From contig CAWETI010000003.1 in the NCBI GenBank assembly GCA_963812015.1, positions 1,856,001 to 1,920,000 of the forward strand: a stretch of DNA of 64,000 nt, read 5' to 3'. A program made the translations under genes and the position numbers. This DNA comes from an uncultured delta proteobacterium (GTDB lineage: Bacteria; Desulfobacterota; Desulfobaccia; Desulfobaccales; 0-14-0-80-60-11). The notes under the pieces are model-generated. The model was not told the DNA's origin, ran no database searches, and worked only from the letters and a program-made list of their open reading frames with translations. Below are positions 41,328 to 61,571 of this stretch, piece after piece (position 1 is the stretch's first letter; the number at the start of each line of letters is the position of its first letter).

Positions 41328-41372
41328 TGTAAATTTTACATCGCTGCATCTTTACAGTTGTGTAATTTTACA
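41328..41372. promoter_or_regulatory. Putative enhancer (UAS) for a sigma-54 activator
   Basis: TGTAAATTTTACA, TGCATCTTTACA, TGTAATTTTACA: TTTACA repeated three times at a 16-bp period. Confidence 0.6.
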
Positions 41373-43296
41373 CCTGATCAGGAGGGCGCAAATCGTGGTG
41401 ATTGATGAGTTGATAGAGGGTGGGGCGGGAGATTCCCAGCAGCCGCGCGGCCTTAGCCTTATTCCAGCCGGTTTGCATCAGGGCCTGGAGAATGTCCGGC
41501 CTTTCCAGCGAAGATATTTTGGGGCGAGCCGCGCCGGCGGGAACTTCCTGGGGCGAGTAATCCTGAATCTCGGCCGGCAGATGTTCCAAAGTAATGGTCG
41601 GGCCGTTGCATAGGACAAAGGCATGTTCGATGGCATGCTGCAGTTCTCTGACATTTCCCGGCCAGGGGTAAATCATGAAGATTTGCAAAACTTCCTGGGA
41701 TACCCCCTCAATGCCTTTGTGATAACTCTGATTAAATAACGTTATGAAATTATTTAGCAACAAAGGTATGTCTTCCCGCCTTTCCCGCAAGGCCGGCAAC
41801 GCGACTTCCAATACCTTCAGGCGATAATAGAGGTCCTCCCGAAATTCTCCCAAACTGACCTTTTGCTTCAAATTCACATTGGTGGCGGCAATAATCCTTA
41901 CGTCTACCCGGCAAGTTACGGAATCACCCACGCGCTCAAACGTCTTTTCCTGTAACGCCCTTAACAGCTTCAACTGTAACTTGGGTGGAATATCCCCCAC
42001 TTCATCCAGAAATAGGGTGCCTCCATGCGCGGCTTGCAAGCGGCCCACCCGGTCCTTCTGGGCCCCGGTGAAAGCCCCTTTTACATGCCCGAACAATTCG
42101 CTCTCCAGCAGATTCTCTGCCAAGGCTGAACAATTCACGGTTATCAGGGGTTTATCGGCCCGGCCCCCGCCATAATGGAGCGCCTTGGCAACCAACTCCT
42201 TGCCGGTGCCGGTTTCACCCGTGATCAACACGGTGGTGTCCGTATACATCAATTGATCCAGCAGGCTGAATATTTGCTGCATCTTATGGCTTTTGCCCAC
42301 AATATTATGCAGGTTATACCGCCCGCGCAATTCCCCTTCCATTTCGGCCACCCGGGTCAAATCCCTGATGACCAGAACCGTGCCCATGGTTTTATCCGCA
42401 CTATCCCTCAAGGCAGAACTACTCACCGCCACGATTTGGCGCGACCGATTTTGCTGCTTACATTCCAGTCGGTAATCTTTGATGGTTTTTTCTGTCCTCA
42501 GCATCTCCCGTAAAGCTGCAAAACATGATTGCCCGCAATATCTAGTGACTTCCTGAAACTTCTTACCGATCATCGCTTTGGGATCCAGGCCGCAAATTTC
42601 CCGGTTGGCATCATTGGCGGCGGTAATCCGCATATCCTTGTCAACCGTGATGATGGCGTCATTGACGCTCCGGAATATAGCTTCCAGATTGCGGCGATTT
42701 TGTTCTTTCTCCGCTTCGAACAGGTTTTGCGTCGTCTGAATCAGCCGCGCTTTATTGATGGCCACTGCCGCCAGGGACGCCAGGGACAGGACCAGATTTT
42801 CATAAGCCCCGTGGAAGGGCACCAGTTTCCCCTTATCGTCCATGGCGTTAATCAGCTCTAAAACACCGGTTACGGTGCCGGTATGATCTTTGAGGGGGAC
42901 CGCCAGAATGGATTGCGTGTGGTAATGATTGCGCCGATCAAAGGCCGGGTTGAAGCGATACGGCAAATCGGCCGACAATTCATAGACATCCGAGATATTC
43001 AGGATGTTACCCGTGAGGGCTACATAACCGGCAATACTGCGCTCGCTAATCGGAATCTCAAATTGCTTGAAAAAGTGGAAGTCTTCACCCTGCAAAAGCA
43101 TCAAGGTATTATTTTGCGCTACTTCGAAGCGGAGATTGCCATTCTTCACCAAGAAAATGCTGCCGCCATCCGCGTGAGTCAGGAGGCGGAGTTCATAGAT
43201 AATTTTTTGCAATAACCTGGATAGATCTGTTTCGCTGGAGAGAGCTATACTGATTTCTATGAGTTTTTGTTTGGCAACGTCGAATGAGGCAGCCAT
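41368..43296 (-). CDS. sigma-54 enhancer-binding protein, GAF-PAS-AAA+-HTH
   Basis: GETGTGKE, ESELFGHVKGAFTGA, LFLDEVG, WPGNVREL, Fis-type HTH; N-terminal GAF and PAS. Confidence 0.95.
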   Translation of the reverse strand: MAASFDVAKQKLIEISIALSSETDLSRLLQKIIYELRLLTHADGGSIFLVKNGNLRFEVAQNNTLMLLQGEDFHFFKQFEIPISERSIAGYVALTGNILNISDVYELSADLPYRFNPAFDRRNHYHTQSILAVPLKDHTGTVTGVLELINAMDDKGKLVPFHGAYENLVLSLASLAAVAINKARLIQTTQNLFEAEKEQNRRNLEAIFRSVNDAIITVDKDMRITAANDANREICGLDPKAMIGKKFQEVTRYCGQSCFAALREMLRTEKTIKDYRLECKQQNRSRQIVAVSSSALRDSADKTMGTVLVIRDLTRVAEMEGELRGRYNLHNIVGKSHKMQQIFSLLDQLMYTDTTVLITGETGTGKELVAKALHYGGGRADKPLITVNCSALAENLLESELFGHVKGAFTGAQKDRVGRLQAAHGGTLFLDEVGDIPPKLQLKLLRALQEKTFERVGDSVTCRVDVRIIAATNVNLKQKVSLGEFREDLYYRLKVLEVALPALRERREDIPLLLNNFITLFNQSYHKGIEGVSQEVLQIFMIYPWPGNVRELQHAIEHAFVLCNGPTITLEHLPAEIQDYSPQEVPAGAARPKISSLERPDILQALMQTGWNKAKAARLLGISRPTLYQLINHHDLRPPDQV

Positions 43297-46159: not shown

Positions 46160-46624
46160 TTACTTGGCCGGCCCGTCGGGGCCAGGGCCACCACCGGCGC
46201 CAACCTTGGGGCAACCACCGACGCCCATGCCGCCGCCGTGGCCGCCTTTGCCATGGCCGAAACACTTGGCCAGCTGCGGGGCGATTTTACGGGCTTCCAG
46301 GTGGAAGGCCGTGCTCTTCTCGATCATTTGGCCCCGCAGGGCGTTGAGTTCCTTCGCCTTGGCGGTAATCGCCTTTTCATCAGGCTTTTCGGCCTTCCAC
46401 AGCGCCGCTAGCTCAGCGTGCTTGACCATCATCTGTTTGCGCACCTCGGCGGTGTCGTTCCTGAACTTCTCCTTGAGGTCAAAGAGCTTCCCCGCCTGAT
46501 CCGGCGTGAGGTTCATGGCTCCCATCATGCCGCCGCCCATGGGACGGGCCCATGAGGCCGCGGCCAACCCCAGGCTCAACGCCAGGGCCAACACCACTAC
46601 CAGGGACATCTTACTCGTTTTCAT
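46160..46624 (-). CDS. Periplasmic Spy/CpxP/ZraP-like protein
   Basis: Signal peptide (SWA), NLTPDQ (LTxxQ) motif, helical core, Gly/His/Met-rich ends; SD GAGGAG. Confidence 0.8.
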   Translation of the reverse strand: MKTSKMSLVVVLALALSLGLAAASWARPMGGGMMGAMNLTPDQAGKLFDLKEKFRNDTAEVRKQMMVKHAELAALWKAEKPDEKAITAKAKELNALRGQMIEKSTAFHLEARKIAPQLAKCFGHGKGGHGGGMGVGGCPKVGAGGGPGPDGPAK

Positions 46625-46850
46625 GTGGACTTATCTCCTCTATCTCGGTTGCGATTGGTTAGTCCGGTTATTCGGCCTTTAGTAAGTTAAACCCCCAGGG
46701 GAGCCAAACCCGGCGCGGTGGCCTGATTTTTTTTCGAGAGGCAGGAACGGACTGAGGAGAAGTGGCCAATGGCGAGAACCGGCGGCGAGAACCCATCAGG
46801 CCACCTTAGTTTGGGGAAATTCTCGAGTGACCTGCCAGCGCTGCCGCCCC

Positions 46851-49016
46851 CTAAGGCGCTTTGCCAATTTGCCGGATGATCTGGTAAACATCTTTGGACA
46901 CCGAGGTGAAGCGGATGTCCGCCTCCTTCAGGATATCGCCCCGGGCCCGCACCGCGGTAACCTTACCGTAGATTTTGCCCCTCACCTCGCTGGCCTCATT
47001 CAGGAGATGGAGGCGCACGTCGTCCCATGCCTGGACCTCCCCTTCCAGGCTAATTTGCGCCGAGGTGTCGCACAGGTGGGTCATCCAGGCATGACCGGCC
47101 GCGTCCTGCACGATCTTTTCTTTGATAATGAAGACCTGGATTTTGATGGGGGTAGTCAGGGCCATGAGGGTATCGCACCTTTCTATGAGGTGGATTTCGT
47201 AAGGCCCGTGGATACCCCGGACATCATAGAGGGTGGCCGGTAGGGGCACCCCTTTCATCTGCACCTGCATGGTGCGCTGCACCTCCACCAGGTCCCGCAC
47301 CCGTTCATAGGTCGCGGCGCTGATGAGCACCTGGCCGCCCACGGAATATGACTCCATCCGGCCGGTAAAATTGACCGGGGAGCCCACCACGCTGTACTTG
47401 GTCCGCTGTTCCGAGCCGATATTGCCCACCACCACTATCCCGGTGTTGACCGCGATGCCCATCTGGAGATAGGGCATCCCTTCGGCCTCGTTGAGCCGGT
47501 TGATCTCATCCATGGAGGCCTGCATGGCCAGGGCGCACGCCACCGCCCGCACCGGGTGATCTTCCAGGGGCTCCGGCGCCCCGAAAAAGGCCAAGAGACC
47601 GTCGCCGATGATCTCATCGATAGTCGCCCGGTGCTCCAGGAGCACTTCGATCATTTTGCCCAGGTAGCGGTTCAAGAAGGTGATCACCTGCTCGGGGTGC
47701 ATGTCCGCGGTCAAGGCGGTAAAACCCCGCAGGTCCGACATGAGAATGGAGAGTTCCCGGGTCTCACCTCCCATTTGCAGGGCGTCCCGGTCTTCCAGGA
47801 GCTTTTTCACCACTTCCTGAGTGACATAACGCCCGAAGGTATCCCGGACGAAGTCCCGTTTTTCGATGTAATCCGTGAGTTGGCGGCCCATCTCGTTGAA
47901 GGACTGGGCCAGGTTGGCGACCTCCCGGACCCCGGTTTCTGGCACCGTGGCGTTAAAGTCCCCCTGGGCGATGGCCGCGGTCTGACGAGCCAGAATTCTC
48001 AAGGGTCGCGCAATCGTTTTGGAAATGGCCACGATCACCACCGCCAGCAACAGCAGTCCTAACATGATGATCCCGAAAATTTTCCGGCTCAGACTGTGGA
48101 CTTCGGCAAATAATTCCTGTTCCGGGATAACCACCGCCAGAGACCAGCCGGTGGACGGCAACGGGGCGTAAAAGAGCCATGATTTTTTGCCGGAATGAAA
48201 GTCAAGCAACGGCACAAACCCGGACCCGCCCCGGATCATGTCCCGTCCCAGGCGCCGCAGGGAGGGGTCACCTCGGGCTTCGGCCAGGCTGAAGACGCTC
48301 TCCCGCATGATCCATTGGGTATTCGGGTGCGTGACGAAGACCCCGTTGCCGGAGATGAGAAAGGCGTAGCCGCTCTGATAAATTTTGACCGCGGAGACCA
48401 GGTCTTGAAGCCACATCAGGGAGAGGTCGGCGGTGACCACGCCCTGGAACCGACGCACCGAACCCTCCCGCCGGTAAAATGGCACGGAATACGTGGACAT
48501 GATGATGTTGCCGCCGCCTTCGTCGAAGTAGGGCTCACTCCACATGGCCTGAGAGAGTTCTTGGGGGAGCTGATACCAATCATAGTAAAAGTAGCGGTAA
48601 GATTCACTCCCCAGATAGGTGATCTTGATCTCTTGGCCTTCCCGAAAGCAATAGGGGCAAAAATAATTGTGGCGGGGATCAAAGGCGTAAGGTTCAAAGG
48701 CCACCGCCACCCCGAAGACCTCCCGGTTATTGGCCACGGTGCGGCGCATCAGGCGCTGCAACTCCGCCTGCCGGTGAGGGTAATCCTCTATCACCGCGGC
48801 CAGGTTGCCGGGGATTTTCATCACCGCTTGGAGCATGGCCTCAATCCGGTACGCGGTCTCCAGGGTGAGGTGCCTGGCGTTTTCGCCCACCTGTTCAATG
48901 ACTGCCTGTTTCGAGGCCACCAGGTTATAGGTGAACGCCGCCAGAAAGATAATGCCCGTGCTGGCGAGGATCAGCAAGATGAGTTGGGCGGCCAGTCCTC
49001 GGGGTTTGGATTGCAT
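46851..49016 (-). CDS. Membrane class III nucleotidyl cyclase: TM-dCache-TM-HAMP-cyclase-PilZ-like
   Basis: DWYQ..WSEPYFDEGGG (dCache), SDLRGFT, IDEIIGD, GNIGS, VN..GRME. Confidence 0.92.
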   Translation of the reverse strand: MQSKPRGLAAQLILLILASTGIIFLAAFTYNLVASKQAVIEQVGENARHLTLETAYRIEAMLQAVMKIPGNLAAVIEDYPHRQAELQRLMRRTVANNREVFGVAVAFEPYAFDPRHNYFCPYCFREGQEIKITYLGSESYRYFYYDWYQLPQELSQAMWSEPYFDEGGGNIIMSTYSVPFYRREGSVRRFQGVVTADLSLMWLQDLVSAVKIYQSGYAFLISGNGVFVTHPNTQWIMRESVFSLAEARGDPSLRRLGRDMIRGGSGFVPLLDFHSGKKSWLFYAPLPSTGWSLAVVIPEQELFAEVHSLSRKIFGIIMLGLLLLAVVIVAISKTIARPLRILARQTAAIAQGDFNATVPETGVREVANLAQSFNEMGRQLTDYIEKRDFVRDTFGRYVTQEVVKKLLEDRDALQMGGETRELSILMSDLRGFTALTADMHPEQVITFLNRYLGKMIEVLLEHRATIDEIIGDGLLAFFGAPEPLEDHPVRAVACALAMQASMDEINRLNEAEGMPYLQMGIAVNTGIVVVGNIGSEQRTKYSVVGSPVNFTGRMESYSVGGQVLISAATYERVRDLVEVQRTMQVQMKGVPLPATLYDVRGIHGPYEIHLIERCDTLMALTTPIKIQVFIIKEKIVQDAAGHAWMTHLCDTSAQISLEGEVQAWDDVRLHLLNEASEVRGKIYGKVTAVRARGDILKEADIRFTSVSKDVYQIIRQIGKAP

Positions 49017-49063
49017 AATTCCCTGATGTCGCTTCCGGTCATTCTTTGCCGGAGCAACCCATC

Positions 49064-50080
49064 CTATTGCGCCTGGGGAAGACAGTCGCGATAAAATTCC
49101 GAAAATTTCGGGATCTGTGCGATCAGGCCGTTTTCCTGGAGGACCCCCGCGACCCGGGCATACGCTTCGGACGTAAGGGTGCCCATGGGCAGGTTCCATC
49201 CCGGCGGCTGGATGATATCCCGCATCCGCTCCAGCATCCATTTCTGGTGGACCCGGTCCGTCGCCACATTCGCGGCCCGGACATAACCCATAACAATATC
49301 CAGGGATTCATCCGGGTGGGCGAAGGCATACCGCCACCCCTCGAGAGAAGCCGCCACGAAGGCCCGGCATCTTTCCGGATGCTGTTGCACCGTCTCTTCC
49401 AGGCAATAAATGCCGTCCTCGGGGAAGTTCATCCCGTAATCGGCCATAAAAAAAGTGGTTAATTCCTCCGGATTCACGCCGGCGTTGAGAATCTGGTGAT
49501 ACTCGTTGTACCACATGGCCGAGGCCACCTCTACCCCATCCCGCAAGAACAGGTTCAGGGTTGCCGATTGGGGGACCTCCCTCACCCGGAGATGGTGTTG
49601 GCGAAAAAAGGCCCGAGGCTGCAAGCGGAATTCATCCCCCCAGAGGCCCACTCTTTTGCCGTTGATGTCCGCGGGGGCGAGAACGCCCTGGGCTTTCTTG
49701 GCTACCAGCATGAGGGCGGACCGTTGCACCATCTGGGCTATGTTGACCAGTTTGCCCCCCTGGGCCCGCGCTTCGATGCCCTTGGCGAGAAACGCGGTCC
49801 CGAAATCAACCCGGCCCTGGGCCAGCATCTCCGAGGCCGGCCACTCGGGGCCGCCCCGCATGATTTTCACTTCCAGGTGGTGCTGCCGGTAGAAGCCCTT
49901 GGCGTATGCCACGTAGTAGCCGGCGAACTGGGCCTGGGGAAGCCACTGGGGCATAAAGGTGACCCGGGCCAGGCCGCTTTCCTGGGCTCTGGCCCCGGCC
50001 CCCAGCAGGAGGCAGGCCAGCAGCGCCATGACGCCGCCCTTCACCAGACGCGGTACTAAACCTACCATTAAGCCAGGCAT
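49064..50080 (-). CDS. NMT1/THI5-like periplasmic substrate-binding protein
   Basis: Signal peptide, QWLPQAQFAGYYVAYAKGFY, FVAASLEGWRYA. Confidence 0.88.
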   Translation of the reverse strand: MPGLMVGLVPRLVKGGVMALLACLLLGAGARAQESGLARVTFMPQWLPQAQFAGYYVAYAKGFYRQHHLEVKIMRGGPEWPASEMLAQGRVDFGTAFLAKGIEARAQGGKLVNIAQMVQRSALMLVAKKAQGVLAPADINGKRVGLWGDEFRLQPRAFFRQHHLRVREVPQSATLNLFLRDGVEVASAMWYNEYHQILNAGVNPEELTTFFMADYGMNFPEDGIYCLEETVQQHPERCRAFVAASLEGWRYAFAHPDESLDIVMGYVRAANVATDRVHQKWMLERMRDIIQPPGWNLPMGTLTSEAYARVAGVLQENGLIAQIPKFSEFYRDCLPQAQ

Positions 50081-50159
50081 GGCAACGCTCCCCCCTGTGT
50101 CTCTCACCTTGTGCGTGGCGCCCCCAACGCGCCTGGAGCTGCTAACCCCATCACGCTTT

Positions 50160-52124
50160 TCACCTGGGTCCCCCCTTACGCCGCCCCCGGGTTTTTGCAA
50201 AAGTCTGATAGATAGCCGGGGGCACCGAAGTGAAGCTGACCAGGATTTCGCACCGGTTCCCCTCCTGGTGCTTCACCTCGATAACCTTGCCATAGATAGA
50301 GCCCGGCATCGGTTCTTCATTCTCATCCAGAAACGTCAGGCGAACATCCTCCCAGGCTTCCAGGTTGCCCTCCGACGTCACCCGGGCGGCGGTGTCGCAC
50401 AGATGCGTCACCCAGGCCGTTCCGGTGGCGTAGGTGACAATCTTGTCCTTGATATGATGGATCTGGACCCGCTTCCTGGCCGGCAGCTTCGTAAGCTTAT
50501 CCGACTTGTCTCTCAGCCGGATATGGTAAGGGGGGCCGATGCCCCGGACGTCATAGAGCGTGGCCCGGCCCGGCACCCCCTTCATCTCCACCTGCTCCAC
50601 ACTACCCACTTCCACCAGGTCCTGCACCCGACTGTAGGTGGCGGCGCTGATCAGCACCTGCCCCGCCAGGGCACATCCTTCCATGCGGGACGCAAAGTTC
50701 ACGTTGGAACCCACAACGCTATACTTAGTCCGCCTTTCCGAGCCGATGTTGCCCACCACCACCGAGCCGGTGTTCACCCCGATGCCCATGGCCAGTCGGG
50801 GCAGGCCGTCGGCCTCGTTGGCGGCATTGATCTCATCCATGGCCGCCTGCATCTCCAAGGCGCAGGCGATGGCCCGGGCCGGGTGGTCTTCCATGGGTTC
50901 GGGGGCGCCGAAGAAGGCCAAGATGCCGTCCCCCAGAATTTCGTCGATGACGGCGTGGTTGTCCAGGAGAATTTCGATCATTTTGCTCAAATAGCGGTTG
51001 AGAAAGGTGATGACCTGCTCCGGGGCCATGTCGGCGATGATGGCGGTGAAACCCCGCAAATCCGACATGATGAGGGAGACCTCCCGGATCTCGCCGCCCA
51101 TTTCCAGAGCCCCTTCGGATTCCAACAGGCGCTTCACCACTTCCTGGGTGACATAGCGCCCAAAGGTGTCCCGGATGAAATCCCGCTTTTCGATATATTC
51201 GGTGAGTTGTTGTCCCAGTTCATTGAAGGAATGGGCCAGATCCGCCACTTCCCGCACCCCCCGTTCCCGCACGGCCACGGCGAAGTTGCCTCCCCCCACC
51301 TGGCGCACCCCGTCCCGGAGGTGAGAGATGGGACGGGAGATGGTCGCGGCAAACCACAGCCCCGACAAGATCCCAACGAGGCCCAGGGCCAGGCCGGCAA
51401 AGAGGCCTCCGATCATGACCTCCCGGTTGAGAACGGCATAATGCGCCTCGATCTGCTGTTTGGCCTGCACCATGGCGATCTGGGAGGATTCTTTGATCCC
51501 CTGTTGCGCCGGCAGGAAAAATTCATCCAGGTTGACGATGGCCGCAATGATGAACGGGGTGCCGGGGACATGGACCCGTACCGAGAACCGCTGCCTCTCC
51601 TTTTTGTCCTTATCGAAAAACGTAAAAAAACCCTGCACATAGTTTTCCTTAAAGGAACGCTTAATCAACTCCGTGGTCTCCGGGTATTCCTTCTCCCAAT
51701 CCAGCTGGTTTTTACCTTCCACGTTTGGGTCCGGGTGAAACAGTATGTAACCGCGCTGGTCATATAAATCCGTATAGCCCGCTGAACCATGCGGGGTGTA
51801 AATCGGCTGGATGGCAATAGCCCTTATCCGGGGATCCTGGCGCAGTTTGGCGTAATCATCGGTTTTTTTTCCTTTCAAGACATAGGCCAGTTCCCGAGCC
51901 ACCTCTTCGGCCTTGTCCTTGACGACGTATTCGCCCATCACGGTGAGGACTCGATCTGAATGTTGTATGTTCGTTGCGGTTACGTTATTTAGGGCCTGGT
52001 CGGCGATTTTGATGGCGCTCTTGGTGAGCCCGCCCAGCACATGGGCGTTGATGAACCAGGCGCCGACTATTAATATGGCAATAAGCGCCAGATAAGACAT
52101 GATCATATAGGTGCGCAGTCGCAT
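50160..52124 (-). CDS. Membrane class III nucleotidyl cyclase: TM-Cache-TM-HAMP-cyclase-PilZ-like
   Basis: Periplasmic Cache-like (ILFHPDPNVEG), HAMP, SDLRGFT, IDEILGD, VNFASRME. Confidence 0.92.
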   Translation of the reverse strand: MRLRTYMIMSYLALIAILIVGAWFINAHVLGGLTKSAIKIADQALNNVTATNIQHSDRVLTVMGEYVVKDKAEEVARELAYVLKGKKTDDYAKLRQDPRIRAIAIQPIYTPHGSAGYTDLYDQRGYILFHPDPNVEGKNQLDWEKEYPETTELIKRSFKENYVQGFFTFFDKDKKERQRFSVRVHVPGTPFIIAAIVNLDEFFLPAQQGIKESSQIAMVQAKQQIEAHYAVLNREVMIGGLFAGLALGLVGILSGLWFAATISRPISHLRDGVRQVGGGNFAVAVRERGVREVADLAHSFNELGQQLTEYIEKRDFIRDTFGRYVTQEVVKRLLESEGALEMGGEIREVSLIMSDLRGFTAIIADMAPEQVITFLNRYLSKMIEILLDNHAVIDEILGDGILAFFGAPEPMEDHPARAIACALEMQAAMDEINAANEADGLPRLAMGIGVNTGSVVVGNIGSERRTKYSVVGSNVNFASRMEGCALAGQVLISAATYSRVQDLVEVGSVEQVEMKGVPGRATLYDVRGIGPPYHIRLRDKSDKLTKLPARKRVQIHHIKDKIVTYATGTAWVTHLCDTAARVTSEGNLEAWEDVRLTFLDENEEPMPGSIYGKVIEVKHQEGNRCEILVSFTSVPPAIYQTFAKTRGRRKGGPR

Positions 52125-52322
52125 GGCTACTCCGGTGTATCCTTAATCCCGCTGAAAACGGCGCGGCCGGGAACCCTCGGCGGAATTATACAACGTTTCG
52201 GATTAAATGGAGGAAAGATTCAATATGCGAGCAGACTTAAGGAATCGGAGCCGCCCGGCGGCCCGGATGGACGATTATGAAAGAGCTTGCCGGGTCGGCA
52301 CCTTGGCACCGGCCGCTGGGGC

Positions 52323-53642
52323 TCAGGGGTAGATCCGATCCAAAAGGCGGGGAAAGGGGATGGTTTCCCGGACATGGTGCAGGCCGCAGAGCCAGGCCAC
52401 CAGGCGCTCGATGCCCATGCCGAAGCCGCTGTGGGGCACGCTGCCGTAGCGGCGCAGGTCCAGATACCATTCCAGGGGTTCCTGGGGCAGGTGATGCTCC
52501 CGGATGCGGGCCAGCAAGAGGTCCAGGTCAGCGATGCGCTGGGAGCCCCCGACAATCTCGCCGTAGCCCTCCGGGGCCAGCATGTCCACGCAGAGGGCTA
52601 GCCGGGGATCGACCGGGTCCGGTTCCATATAAAAGGCCTTGGCCTCCTTGGGGTAGCGGTGCACCAGCACCGGCCGGGGAAACAATTGGGAGAGCACGGT
52701 CTCCTCGTCTCCACCCAGATCTTCGCCCCAGGCCAGGTCTTTGCCGTGTTGTTTCAGGTGTTCCAGGGCCTGGGCATAGCTGAGGCGGGGGAACGGTCCG
52801 GCCACTTCCTCAAGGGGGGCGATATCCCGCTCCAGGAGACGTAGCTGCGCCGCCTGGCGATCCAACACCCTGAGGACCACGGCCCGCACCAGGCCCTCGG
52901 CCAATTCCATCATATCATCCAGGGTAAAGAAGGCCGCCTCGGCCTCCACCATCCAGAACTCCGTCAGGTGGCGACGGGTCTTGGATTTTTCCGCCCGGAA
53001 GGTCGGCCCGAAGCAATACACCCGGCCCAGGGCCATGGCCGCGGCCTCGAGATAGAGCTGGCCGCTCTGGGACAGATAGGCCTTGCCCCGGTCCAGATAG
53101 TCCGTCTCGAAGAGGCTGGTGGTACCCTCGCAGGCCGTGGGAGTAAGGATGGGGGTGTCCACCAGGACGAACCCCCGTTCGTGGAAAAAATCCCGGCAGG
53201 CCCGGCAGACCTCGTCCCGGATCCTCAGGATGGCCTGCTGCCGGGGAGACCGGAGCCACAGGTGGCGCCGATCCATGAGAAAGGCCACCCCGTGTTCCTT
53301 GGGGGAAATGGGATAGTCCGGGGCGATCTGCAGGGGTATCACCCGGGTCACTTCCAGCTCAAAGCCCCCGGGAGCCCGGGGCTCGGCCCTGACCCGGCCT
53401 TCCAGGATCAGGGAGGTTTCCAGGGTAAGCATCTCGAATTGCTGAAAATCTTCCTCAGGGAGGTTCCCCTTGACCAGTACCCCCTGGGCCAACCCGGTGC
53501 CATCCCGGACCACCAGAAAGCGGACCTTGCCGCTGGAACGCAGATGGTACACCCATCCGCGCAGGGACACGGCCTGTCCGACATGCTGGGCCAGGGAAGC
53601 GATGTCAACCACCGGTGCGGTGGTGGTAATAGTTGGCGGCAT
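52323..53642 (-). CDS. asnS: Asparagine--tRNA ligase
   Basis: LRGWV..LRSSGK, RHLWLRS, YLSQSGQLY, FRAEKS.TRRHLTEFWM, PHSGFGMGIER. Confidence 0.95.
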   Translation of the reverse strand: MPPTITTTAPVVDIASLAQHVGQAVSLRGWVYHLRSSGKVRFLVVRDGTGLAQGVLVKGNLPEEDFQQFEMLTLETSLILEGRVRAEPRAPGGFELEVTRVIPLQIAPDYPISPKEHGVAFLMDRRHLWLRSPRQQAILRIRDEVCRACRDFFHERGFVLVDTPILTPTACEGTTSLFETDYLDRGKAYLSQSGQLYLEAAAMALGRVYCFGPTFRAEKSKTRRHLTEFWMVEAEAAFFTLDDMMELAEGLVRAVVLRVLDRQAAQLRLLERDIAPLEEVAGPFPRLSYAQALEHLKQHGKDLAWGEDLGGDEETVLSQLFPRPVLVHRYPKEAKAFYMEPDPVDPRLALCVDMLAPEGYGEIVGGSQRIADLDLLLARIREHHLPQEPLEWYLDLRRYGSVPHSGFGMGIERLVAWLCGLHHVRETIPFPRLLDRIYP

Positions 53643-60845: not shown

Positions 60846-61571
60846 ATGCTTGAGATCGATGACCTCTGGGTAAATATCGACGACAAGGAGGTGCTCAAGG
60901 GCATCAACCTCCGGGTGCCCGTGGGGGAGACCCATATCCTCTTTGGCAAGAACGGCTCGGGCAAATCCAGCCTGCTCATGGCCATCATGGGTTTCGAACG
61001 CTATCAGGTGAAGCAGGGCCGGATCAGCTTCCTGGGCCAGGATATCACCCAACTGCCCACCTATGAGCGGGCCCGCCTGGGCCTGGGCCTCTCCTTCCAG
61101 CGCCCCCCCACTATCCGGGGCGTCAAGACTGCGGACCTCTTGCGGGTCTGCTCCCGGGGCGTCGTCGCCCCCGAGGCCCTGGCCGCGGTGTATGATTTTA
61201 CCCCGTTTCTGGAGCGAGAGGTCAATTACGGCTTTTCCGGGGGGGAGATCAAGCGCTCCGAACTCCTGCAATTGCTGGCCCAGAACCCCAAGATGGTGCT
61301 CCTGGACGAACCGGAGTCGGGGGTGGACCTGGAGAACCTCCAGGTAGTGGGGAAGATCATCGCCCACCTGCTCCAAAAGGAGCGCCGCCGCCAGCACCGG
61401 GAAAAATCCGGCCTGATCATCACCCACACCGGCTTCATCATGGATTACGTCAACGCCGATCGGGCTTACATCCTGGGCGACGGCCGCATCTGCTGCCACG
61501 GCAACCCCGGGGAGCTCCTGCACGATATCAAGAACTTCGGTTACGAGGAATGCGCCAAATGTCGCAGATAA
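60846..61571 (+). CDS. sufC: Fe-S assembly ABC ATPase SufC (SmsC-type)
   Basis: GKNGSGKS, FSGGEIKR, LLDEPESGVD, IITH; Cys-rich tail ICC...CAKC. Confidence 0.92.
   Translation: MLEIDDLWVNIDDKEVLKGINLRVPVGETHILFGKNGSGKSSLLMAIMGFERYQVKQGRISFLGQDITQLPTYERARLGLGLSFQRPPTIRGVKTADLLRVCSRGVVAPEALAAVYDFTPFLEREVNYGFSGGEIKRSELLQLLAQNPKMVLLDEPESGVDLENLQVVGKIIAHLLQKERRRQHREKSGLIITHTGFIMDYVNADRAYILGDGRICCHGNPGELLHDIKNFGYEECAKCRR

Follow-up and report, generated by a model that had tools for sequence, protein, structure and literature searches.

A candidate cyclase signalling operon built around an orphan NMT1/THI5-family binding protein

The window analysed here, a 64,000-nucleotide stretch of DNA from a sulfate-reducer-like bacterium, carries at positions 46851-52124 three minus-strand genes of the same orientation, found by ORF analysis: cycA and cycB, which encode membrane class III cyclases, and between them the gene of an orphan periplasmic binding protein (SBP). 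Taken as a whole, these genes are best explained, with a little better than even confidence, as a signalling operon of two units, SBP-cycB and cycA. The first unit would be a two-part periplasmic sensor, in which the secreted SBP docks sideways onto the dCache_1 domain of the receptor whose gene comes directly after its own, cycB. The SBP's ligand state would then be relayed along the membrane helices, by way of HAMP and the cyclase transducer element, to a Cya2-type cyclase acting as a homodimer, by the same logic as in LuxP-LuxQ. The second unit would be cycA, a resident paralogue with a single-Cache sensor of its own, which works without the SBP and couples a further external signal to the nucleotide pool that cycB also supplies. 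What we infer in this scheme is cGMP as the product, the way in which regulation runs, the ligand, and what the PilZ-like domain does.

Gene layout and the orphan binding protein

The sandwich of two co-oriented membrane cyclases around an NMT1/THI5 binding protein, described in an earlier note on this DNA, is borne out by the ORFs and their Pfam domains. The listed ORFs of 796 and 378 aa run into their upstream genes; judged from the sequence, the likely starts are ATG 49016 for cycB (721 aa) and ATG 50080 for the SBP, which then has 338 aa including a signal peptide; the intergenic gaps after this correction are 79 and 47 nt. The cycA product (50160..52124, minus strand like all features of the operon; 654 aa) comprises a transmembrane helix (TM), an sCache-like sensor, a second TM, HAMP, an FGRY transducer element, the cyclase and a PilZ-like C-terminal domain, while that of cycB (46851..49016) comprises TM, dCache_1, TM, HAMP, cyclase and PilZ-like domain. 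Pfam matches in cycA are HAMP (E 1e-9) and Guanylate_cyc (E 4e-29), and those in cycB are MCP-like_PDC_1 (E 8e-31), dCache_1 (E 1e-19), HAMP and Guanylate_cyc (E 5e-25). The SBP (49064..50080) consists of a signal peptide (residues 1-32, 49985-50080) and the mature protein (49067-49984), belongs to the NMT1/THI5 family (PF09084, E 2e-39) and is the sole NMT1-family protein of the host genome.

The SBP is an orphan, with no transporter of its own. The earlier observation that no ABC permease or ATPase lies nearby holds: a scan of nine flanking genes revealed no ABC importer, and the only ABC ATPase of the window (60846-61571, plus strand) adjoins a SufB/D gene, which identifies it as SufC. NMT1-family proteins usually partner NitT/TauT-type importers, which would favour an SBP that belongs to an ABC importer with genes at another place and lies between the cyclases incidentally, and the SBP has weak NCBIfam matches, far below cut-off, to SsuA-family transport proteins. 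We consider this very improbable, since the host genome has only 8 BPD_transp_1 matches, none of them within the window; the two single-permease systems inspected, as distinct from three paired-permease ones on C2, own binding proteins of other families; and the pairing with a dCache receptor is kept across phyla. Among the 50 upstream neighbours of SBP homologues scanned, no ABC permease or ATPase was found. An ABC-ATPase-like ORF lies within the 6-kb flanks of 12 of 80 homologous loci, mostly 4-5 kb downstream and in PP2C-type loci, so that a link to transport is possible in those lineages.

Pairing and predicted docking of the binding protein with cycB

A synteny survey, as proposed in the earlier note, covered 80 loci with SBP homologues (41-79% identity to the SBP) from Thermodesulfobacteriota, Verrucomicrobiota, Kiritimatiellae, Bacteroidales, Planctomycetota, Omnitrophota, Methylobacter, Nitrosomonas and others. 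A callable co-oriented ORF directly follows the SBP in 76 of these loci, the remaining four reaching the contig end, and in 75 of the 76 it encodes an MCP-like_PDC_1/dCache_1 receptor; the one exception is a stub of 156 aa where the contig breaks off. The outputs of these 75 receptors are SpoIIE/PP2C (56), cyclase (12, plus one split gene), an MCP signalling domain (3), or are cut off by the contig end (3), and the 50 upstream ORFs scanned include RsbW-like HATPase_c_2 in nine loci and STAS in four. The SBP-dCache_1 pair is thus conserved over many bacterial phyla, with a variable output, and this is the firmest finding of the analysis.

Modelling of the complex between the SBP and the periplasmic dCache_1 domain of cycB (residues 30-312, 48081..48929), also proposed earlier, supports docking. 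The model reached an ipSAE of 0.83 in each of three runs, against a best score of 0.00 in three controls. This score is the model's own confidence; of the 157 solved complexes used for calibration, 116 reach the 0.83 mark, as do 2 of the 215 mismatched pairs, figures that are rough here as our own alignments lie outside that calibration. The three runs have at least 96% of their contacts in common, and the pLDDT of the partners does not fall below 89. The predicted docking crosses a conserved surface: mean column conservation is 0.74 at the dCache interface vs 0.56 elsewhere (p 8e-5), and 0.71 vs 0.60 on the SBP (p 0.025), where highly conserved positions are weakly enriched (6/24 at the interface, 58/282 elsewhere; p 0.39). 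With binding to the cycB dCache thus supported by the model, it is likely that the SBP acts as a periplasmic co-receptor of cycB.

The nearest solved structures to the cycB dCache are the Methanosarcina mazei histidine kinase sensors 3LI8 and 3LIB (E 1e-39 to 9e-39), with which it has the DxYQxPK, EPYF, MxS/T and D pocket motifs in common. As 3LIB serves as an amine-binding dCache_1AM example in the available text of PMC10589655, the cycB dCache might itself bind a small ligand, and the receptor could then sense a small molecule, such as a small amine, directly, leaving the SBP as a scavenger or mere accessory. By our own mapping, the aromatic pair W118/Y119, M144 and D168 match dCache_1AM pocket positions, and a Desulfovibrio Ser/Thr phosphatase (R3) is among the ten test targets given there (PMC10589655). 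However, the cycB family differs from 3LI8/3LIB in a GGG insertion in the pocket loop, in Thr for Ser, and in lacking a conserved Trp at the mapped motif-Trp place, which is variable (Cys in cycB); single mismatches are described as abolishing or strongly reducing amine binding (PMC10589655). The cycB family also has a dedicated SBP, and a scavenger role would leave both the 75/76 pairing without transporter genes and the confident interface unexplained. Direct sensing with a dispensable SBP is therefore unlikely, but direct small-molecule sensing and SBP docking are compatible and not mutually exclusive.

The periplasmic domain of cycA (residues 27-235, 51420..52046) appears to be of a different kind. 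Its Cache matches in Pfam are all sub-threshold (E 6e-4 to 3e-3), and solved structures gave no sequence relative. The AF2 model (pLDDT 84.6) has a long helix, one PAS/Cache-like module and a further helix, and its Foldseek matches include TlpB and 2qhk, an sCache_2 structure; by predicted fold rather than by Pfam, the sensor is a single Cache/PAS-like module. In a co-occurrence survey of 30 relatives, the SBP is found in nine; a cycB-type dCache occurs in those nine, always adjacent, and in one more. The cycA sensor is present in 18; from 11 of these the SBP is missing at the threshold used, and three congeners (G012, G004, G015) have cycA alone, with neither SBP nor cycB, in the same chromosomal slot (mfd-surA-aaRS-cycA-...-spy-def-fmt). 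SBP-cycB is in turn found without cycA in a sister family (G021, G027) and in loci L006, L007, L009, L014, L033 and L063.

These distributions bear on the earlier proposal that the SBP, once loaded, binds the Cache domains of cycA and cycB alike, the enzymes possibly working as a heterodimer. The cytoplasmic halves of cycA and cycB are 59% identical (253/427), and within the genus the SBP-cycB pair always lies beside cycA on assembled contigs. Two Verrucomicrobiota loci (L026, L029) have a parallel MCP(Cache_3-Cache_2)-SBP-MCP(dCache_1) sandwich, and the available text of PMC8050422 counts Helicobacter pylori TlpB, whose sensor is sCache_2, among the SBP-stimulated receptors. Against this, cycA occurs without the SBP in 11 of the 30 relatives and is the only one of the three genes in that slot in related genomes, which leaves docking on both cyclases and an obligate heterodimer unsupported, and since each enzyme has the full catalytic set, homodimers suffice. 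We regard this arrangement as quite improbable, and there is good reason to think that cycA is independent of the SBP. Probable docking on the Cache domain of cycB is the part of the proposal that is supported, and conservation extends to the SBP-dCache pair (adjacent in all nine SBP-positive relatives) but not to cycA beside it.

Cyclase residues, substrate and C-terminal domain

Both cyclase domains retain all catalytic residues, and the metal Asp pair, the N...R residues and the IDE(I)xGD and KYSVVG motifs reported earlier are all present, as IDEILGD (cycA), IDEIIGD (cycB) and KYSVVGS. In cycA (50553..51089), the residues are Asp355/Asp399, Arg357, Glu395, Ser469, Asn476, Arg480 and Lys515, and in cycB (47250..47762) Asp428/Asp472, Arg430, Glu468, Ser542, Asn549, Arg553 and Lys588. 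The position occupied by Lys in adenylyl cyclases is thus Glu in both (Glu395, Glu468), and the second specificity site is Ser (Ser469, Ser542); the pair in mammalian guanylyl cyclases is Glu-Cys/Ser (PMC6005667). The nearest solved relatives are the catalytic domain of Cya2 (2w01; E 7e-54, 186 bits; about 46% identity, counted by hand on the printed alignment) and its phytochrome fusion 6fht, and this direct homology supports the Cya2-type guanylyl-cyclase Glu signature noted before. Cya2 residues Asp448, Glu488, Asp492, Arg450, Asn569, Arg573 and Lys608 (PMC6005667) all have identical counterparts in the window's cyclases.

Among 12 aligned class III cyclases of the host genome, four have Glu and eight Lys. 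Glu is also found in 21 of 21 SBP-linked cyclases of related loci, and in 13 further homologues in which the search pattern located the site. Given the four host enzymes and the SBP-linked set, the Glu is, on sequence grounds, no chance substitution. To our knowledge, however, sequence is an unreliable guide to bacterial class III cyclases whose specificity residues are atypical. The Glu/Ser pair may confer no GTP preference in this scaffold, the cyclases being adenylyl or promiscuous and the operon an ordinary cAMP sensor system. The Tyr beside the catalytic Arg of Cya2, which reportedly gives a great increase in guanylyl but not adenylyl activity (PMC4215837), is missing: the place of Tyr572 is taken by Ser479 in cycA and Gly552 in cycB, and by Ser/Gly across the whole clade. 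Changes of substrate residues often cut activity rather than switch specificity, according to the same source (PMC4215837), and the six cNMP-binding proteins of the host are assignable to neither cAMP nor cGMP. Conversely, Cya2 is by a wide margin the nearest relative that has been characterised, the next-best solved one being the Lys-Thr adenylyl cyclase CyaB (E 4e-29, 105 bits); E488K alone turns Cya2 into an adenylyl cyclase (PMC5995499); the Glu is invariant in the SBP-linked and further homologues; and the host has a separate set of Lys-type cyclases. The adenylyl or promiscuous alternative is possible but doubtful, and we hold it more likely than not that cycA and cycB would make mainly cGMP from GTP, by virtue of their closeness to Cya2 and their Glu and Ser specificity sites.

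Each cyclase ends in a paralogous PilZ-like domain: the C-terminal 129 residues of cycA (50163..50549), modelled as a beta-barrel plus helix, and 46854..47240 in cycB. The cycA domain has no Pfam match at E<=10, and Pfam PilZ misses the window's proteins. The top Foldseek matches of its AF2 model (pLDDT 84.4) are the PilZ domains of BcsA, MotI, VCA0042, Alg44, PlzA and YcgR, with marginal values (E 7e-4 to 3e-2, TM 0.5-0.6), and homologue P0175 has a precomputed PilZ match (PF07238). Neither cyclase has the c-di-GMP motifs in this domain. Among the homologues surveyed, it is seen on Glu-type cyclases only; in the host genome, the four Glu-type enzymes alone have tails of 118-124 residues, those of the eight Lys-type enzymes measuring 0-74 residues apart from one multidomain protein with 866. 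By analogy with the 118-residue extension of Cya2, which strongly raises activity (PMC5995499), the PilZ-like domain probably stimulates or gates the cyclase.

Comparison with known systems

Bacterial cGMP synthesis by class III cyclases is described for Rhodospirillum centenum GcyA and Xanthomonas campestris XC_0250/XC_0249 (PMC3770947), whose architectures are unlike that of the window operon, which has no linked cNMP receptor gene. Cya2 of Synechocystis PCC 6803 (CHASE2-TM-transducer-cyclase-118-aa C-terminal extension) is closer: it has in common with the window's cyclases the FGRY transducer element, both metal Asp, the Arg, Asn, Arg and Lys residues, the specificity Glu, and a C-terminal extension of about 120 residues, the Cya2 tail being compared by length. 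A CHASE2-bearing homologue, P0071, aligns with the C-terminal domain across its full length. The window's cyclases differ from Cya2 in Cache plus HAMP for CHASE2, in Ser for Gly at the second specificity site, in Ser/Gly for Tyr before the catalytic Arg, and in the presence of an SBP partner.

The PP2C-type SBP loci have the same SBP and dCache_1 families, whereas the output in the window is a Cya2-type cyclase that ends in a PilZ-like tail, and its paralogue, the other cyclase, lies upstream. LuxP-LuxQ (Vibrio), HptA-HptS and NspS-MbaA are SBP-stimulated receptors with dCache-like sensors (PMC8050422). The SBP-stimulated outputs in the available text of that review are chemoreceptors, kinases, GGDEF/EAL proteins and Ser/Thr kinases, with no class III cyclase or PP2C phosphatase among them, and the terms 'NMT1' and 'PF09084' are absent from its text. 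In these systems, as in the window, an SBP without a transporter is encoded next to a membrane receptor whose sensor is of the double PAS/Cache kind; the window's SBP differs in belonging to another family, NMT1/THI5, and in being paired with another output.

Gene layout and the binding protein-receptor pair

Three co-oriented genes, cycA, SBP and cycB, were read as ORFs on the minus strand at 46851-52124, and their orientation, their domains and the lack of a neighbouring ABC importer confirm the arrangement of cyclase, orphan binding protein and cyclase that the earlier note had described. The product of cycA (52124..50160, minus strand; 654 aa) spans the membrane with two helices that enclose a periplasmic domain of 209 residues, and continues with HAMP, the transducer element FGRY and a class III cyclase domain, ending in a tail of about 125 residues. 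SBP (minus strand, 338 aa) encodes a binding protein of the NMT1/THI5 family and likely starts at ATG 50080, and cycB (minus strand, 721 aa), which combines an MCP-like_PDC_1/dCache_1 double Cache sensor, a HAMP domain, a cyclase domain and a tail of the cycA type, likely starts at ATG 49016. The long listed ORFs of both genes run into their upstream neighbours, and the sequence favours these two ATG codons as better starts, leaving intergenic gaps of 79 nt between cycA and SBP and 47 nt between SBP and cycB. Housekeeping genes flank the operon on both sides: upstream are mfd, a surA-like gene and the gene of a class II aminoacyl-tRNA synthetase, and downstream are a gene of the Spy/CpxP type, def, fmt, one with DUF116 and, at 41368-43296 on the minus strand, a GAF-PAS sigma-54 activator. 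A promoter and terminator scan of 46400-52500 stayed at chance level (3 promoter-like signals vs 2.3 expected, 6 terminator-like signals vs 6.6 expected), so the limits of the operon are drawn from gene spacing alone.

The binding protein matches PF09084 with 136 bits (E 2e-39; Pfam cut-off 20.5), and its hydrophobic signal peptide, as read from the sequence, ends in ARA, directly before QE. Its closest solved relatives, at modest scores, are 4nmy and ThiY (3ix1), and THI5 is also matched; solved proteins of the NMT1 family bind thiamine or aminopyrimidines (PMC10443332). No ABC importer was found near the operon: all 8 permease matches of the genome lie outside the window, and the sole ABC ATPase in the window is SufC, adjoining SufB/D.

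Homologues of SBP, scanned in one genome per species, were found at 80 loci in many phyla, with 41-79% identity. A co-oriented ORF directly follows SBP in 76 of the 80, the contig ending there in the other 4, and 75 of these 76 ORFs contain an MCP-like_PDC_1/dCache_1 sensor, the exception being a 156-aa stub where the contig ends. What these receptors drive varies: 56 carry SpoIIE/PP2C, in several cases fused to an RsbW-like ATPase domain, 12 and one split gene carry a cyclase, 3 carry a chemoreceptor signalling domain, and 3 are truncated. Both families are strongly conserved (mean column identity 59% in SBP, 54% in the sensor). Of 50 upstream neighbours of SBP homologues, 0 proved to be an ABC permease or ATPase; an ABC-ATPase-like ORF occurs in the flanks of 12 of the 80 loci, mostly 4-5 kb downstream and at PP2C-type loci, L014 being the only cyclase-type locus among the 12. 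Eight loci (L041, L047, L049, L052, L056, L057, L065 and L070) share such an ORF on the strand of SBP, 4-5 kb further downstream; they come from Methylobacter, Nitrosomonas, a Pelobacter-like MAG and two unclassified proteobacterial MAGs.

Upstream of SBP, loci with a PP2C output often encode an RsbV-like STAS protein (L016, L018, L021 and L038) or an RsbW-like HATPase_c_2 protein (L022, L023, L032, L035, L045, L051, L064 and L074). Such a STAS or HATPase_c_2 gene, SBP and dCache-HAMP-PP2C together amount to a complete partner-switching cassette whose input is a periplasmic binding protein. Two loci from Verrucomicrobiota (L026:3476-8962 and L029:3467-8965) hold a chemoreceptor sandwich, in which SBP lies between an MCP with Cache_3-Cache_2 and an MCP with dCache_1.

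Conservation of the SBP-dCache_1 pair reaches from Thermodesulfobacteriota to Bacteroidales, Verrucomicrobiota, Planctomycetota and methanotrophs, and its outputs are interchangeable; therefore, one ligand and one docking mode would explain many receptors. The breadth of this conservation is the main value of the finding, and signalling from a binding protein to the commonest bacterial sensor domain could be studied cleanly on this pair.

Docking model and the place of cycA

When the mature SBP was modelled in complex with the cycB sensor, all three runs gave a score of 0.83 and the best of three controls gave 0.00; such a score is a prediction, no measurement. Among solved complexes 116 of 157 reach 0.83, as do 2 of 215 mismatched pairs, counts that are approximate here, since our own alignments were used. 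The runs agreed in at least 96% of their contacts, with a partner pLDDT of 89 or more. The predicted contacts (131-137, 194-197 and 208-232 in the dCache domain; 144-151, 166-169 and 238-246 in SBP), which include the loop W130-SEPYFDEGGGN beside the ligand pocket position of related dCache domains, are better conserved than the remaining residues; the difference is clear for the sensor (p 8e-5) and weak for SBP (p 0.025). The proposal that the binding protein docks on the Cache domains of both cyclases therefore holds in part: together with the near-invariant gene pairing, the modelled complex suggests that SBP likely docks on the dCache_1 domain (residues 30-312) of the downstream cycB, and docking on the sensor of cycA, which also occurs without SBP, is not supported.

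The closest solved structures to the cycB sensor are those of M. mazei, 3LI8 and 3LIB (E 1e-39), of which 3LIB is described as an archaeal example of the dCache_1AM amine motif, defined in PctD by R103, D133, W155, F188, Y189, M215, S217 and D235 (PMC10589655). When the Trp, the aromatic pair, Met, Ser and Asp of this motif were mapped through 3LIB and 3LI8, the aromatic pair, Met and Asp were kept in the cycB sensor family by this mapping, with the Trp position variable (Cys in cycB), Ser replaced by Thr and three Gly inserted. Because single mismatches in the motif abolish or strongly cut amine binding (PMC10589655), direct amine sensing by the cycB dCache domain is possible and is not predicted.

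In its model (pLDDT 84.6), the cycA sensor has a single PAS/Cache-like module between a long helix and a second helix. Foldseek matches it to, among others, TlpB of H. pylori and 2qhk, an sCache_2 structure, and a sequence search of the PDB returned chance-level matches alone (best E 0.16). Among 30 related genomes, several of them incomplete, so that absence means "not found" at the threshold used and is not proof, SBP was found in 9, the cycB-type sensor in the same 9, always adjacent, and also in genome G030, and the cycA sensor in 18, including 16 of 17 congeners; 11 of these 18 are without SBP at that threshold.

The earlier note had further considered a cycA/cycB heterodimer, which the gene distribution does not support, though such dimers may form. 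In three related genomes (G012, G004 and G015), the order mfd-surA-synthetase-cycA-...-spy-def-fmt-DUF116 is intact, with cycA standing alone and no SBP or cycB found; the reverse case, SBP-cycB with no cycA match, is seen in G021 and G027, and six loci carry an SBP-cyclase pair without an upstream cyclase. The two arrangements occur separately and thus point to a resident cyclase gene, probably independent of SBP, beside a portable two-gene sensor unit; to judge from this distribution, the cycA-SBP-cycB sandwich is no obligate three-part machine. In a tree of the cytoplasmic halves (midpoint root, backbone unresolved, the truncated downstream sequence of locus L002 left out), upstream-type (cycA) sequences are nested within the downstream-type (cycB) radiation; an older SBP-cycB, with cycA as a later copy, would fit this tree, and no order of events is claimed.

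Unrelated small ORFs fill the slot between cycA and the spy-like gene at the two loci inspected in G004 and G012. In congeners without SBP-cycB (L085:5160-6450 and L086:4760-7380), this slot, with ORFs for example of 175-aa and 344-aa hypothetical proteins, looks like a variable insertion spot. In the congener G007, the match to the cycA sensor is split in two and holds an in-frame TAA (contig C129, 10919-11540) beside an intact SBP-cycB pair, and this cycA may be a broken copy.

Substrate signature and C-terminal domain

Both cyclases match PF00211 (102 and 88.5 bits, Pfam cut-off 21.9), contain the complete class III catalytic set of two metal-binding Asp, the transition-state Asn and Arg and the phosphate-binding Arg/Lys, and are 59% identical to each other from HAMP to the C-terminus (253/427), with unrelated sensors. 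Their best solved matches are the domain of the Synechocystis guanylyl cyclase Cya2 (2w01; E 7e-54, 186 bits) and the phytochrome-Cya2 fusion 6fht, followed by the adenylyl cyclase CyaB (105 bits). At the adenine-specifying Lys position, Glu395 of cycA and Glu468 of cycB align with IDEFMGD of Cya2, which prefers GTP and is turned into an adenylyl cyclase by the single change E488K (PMC5995499). These residues, with 2w01 as the best solved relative, bear out the Cya2-type guanylyl-cyclase signature read earlier from the sequence. The second specificity site holds Ser469 in cycA and Ser542 in cycB at the position of Gly562 in Cya2, and Ser is given as the alternative residue at this site in mammalian guanylyl cyclases (PMC6005667). 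The Cya2 residues tabulated in that paper have identical counterparts in both cyclases, save Gly562 and the Tyr that precedes the catalytic Arg, the latter being replaced by Ser479 in cycA and by Gly552 in cycB. This Tyr has been reported to raise guanylyl, not adenylyl, cyclase activity (PMC4215837), and its absence is the main reason for caution; cGMP is predicted, with moderate confidence, to be the main product of cycA and cycB.

Among the 13 Pfam cyclase matches of the window's own genome, 12 could be aligned, with Glu in 4 and Lys in 8; the second site is Ser in the window's two Glu-type cyclases, Gly in the other two and mostly Thr in the Lys-type eight. SBP-linked cyclases of other genomes have Glu in 21 of 21, with Ser (17), Gly (3) or Ala (1) at the second site. 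The genome's other two Glu-type cyclases, which share the same C-terminal domain, lie on contig C2 (L083:3722-5761 and L084:3611-5050); one is a HisKA-REC-cyclase beside a hybrid histidine kinase, and the other, of 479 aa, has V4R, GGDEF and HD-GYP-like proteins encoded nearby. A Lys-type CHASE2-cyclase on contig C3 (L082:2602-4758) lies beside an ABC transporter (PBP_like_2 binding protein, permease and ATPase) and a molybdopterin oxidoreductase.

The C-terminal stretches of cycA and cycB gave no Pfam match at E<=10. Relatives of the domain number 68 among 1.84 billion cluster representatives, and a profile search retrieved 841 proteins, with a cyclase domain in 119 of the 120 matches listed. 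Two long non-cyclase proteins with several repeat matches (P0034 and P0052) were rejected as spurious, being repeat-rich surface proteins by Pfam. PF26769 is precomputed on many cycA-like homologues (P0073, P0075, P0080 and others) and is absent from the Pfam scans of the window's proteins.

The AF2 model of the domain is a beta-barrel with a C-terminal helix (pLDDT 84.4), and its top Foldseek matches, marginal in score (E 7e-4 to 3e-2, TM 0.5-0.6), are nearly all PilZ domains (BcsA, MotI/DgrA, VCA0042, Alg44, PlzA and YcgR); one homologue, P0175, carries a precomputed PilZ match. PilZ domains bind c-di-GMP through the motifs RxxxR and D/NxSxxG. In 22 aligned copies, neither motif is conserved at the matching stretches (e.g. 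LCDTAARV). The specificity residue is Glu in 13 of 13 tail-bearing cyclases in which the pattern located the site, a count outside which P0046 and P0070, with no site located, fall; in the window's own genome, the tail is confined to the four Glu-type cyclases. The CHASE2-cyclase P0071, which has the architecture of Cya2, aligns across the entire C-terminal domain, and we infer that the domain of cycA and cycB is the same as the Cya2 extension. This 118-residue extension is needed for good activity of Cya2 and was called structurally uncharacterised in 2018 (PMC5995499). The PilZ-like reading offers a testable structural hypothesis for this activity-stimulating extension, which is used in optogenetic cyclases.

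Relation to known sensory systems

In a wider reading, which we consider improbable, the phylum-spanning orphan NMT1-type binding protein and its dedicated dCache_1 receptor would drive a bacterial cGMP network in this organism, the degenerate PilZ-like domain of the genome's four Glu-type cyclases would tie cGMP production to a second signal from a nucleotide or protein, and cycA and cycB would also pair, integrating two outside signals. If true, the phylum-spanning two-part periplasmic sensor would be previously undescribed.

Few bacterial cGMP systems have been characterised, and none fed by a periplasmic binding protein was found in print. Literature searches returned no title or abstract describing a class III cyclase or PP2C pair coupled to a binding protein, which is weak evidence of absence. 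Outputs stimulated by binding proteins, as listed in the available text of PMC8050422, comprise chemoreceptors, sensor kinases, GGDEF/EAL proteins and Ser/Thr kinases; in that text adenylate cyclases are named solely in the introduction, and the terms 'NMT1' and 'PF09084' do not occur.

The proposed logic of SBP-cycB is that of LuxP-LuxQ, HptA-HptS and NspS-MbaA, in which a transporterless binding protein stimulates a double Cache-like receptor (PMC8050422), and the gene context is of the LuxPQ type, with a binding protein gene that lacks transporter genes and is conserved beside its receptor gene. In its parts, the operon is of known kinds, a receptor probably stimulated by a binding protein and a Cya2-type cyclase.
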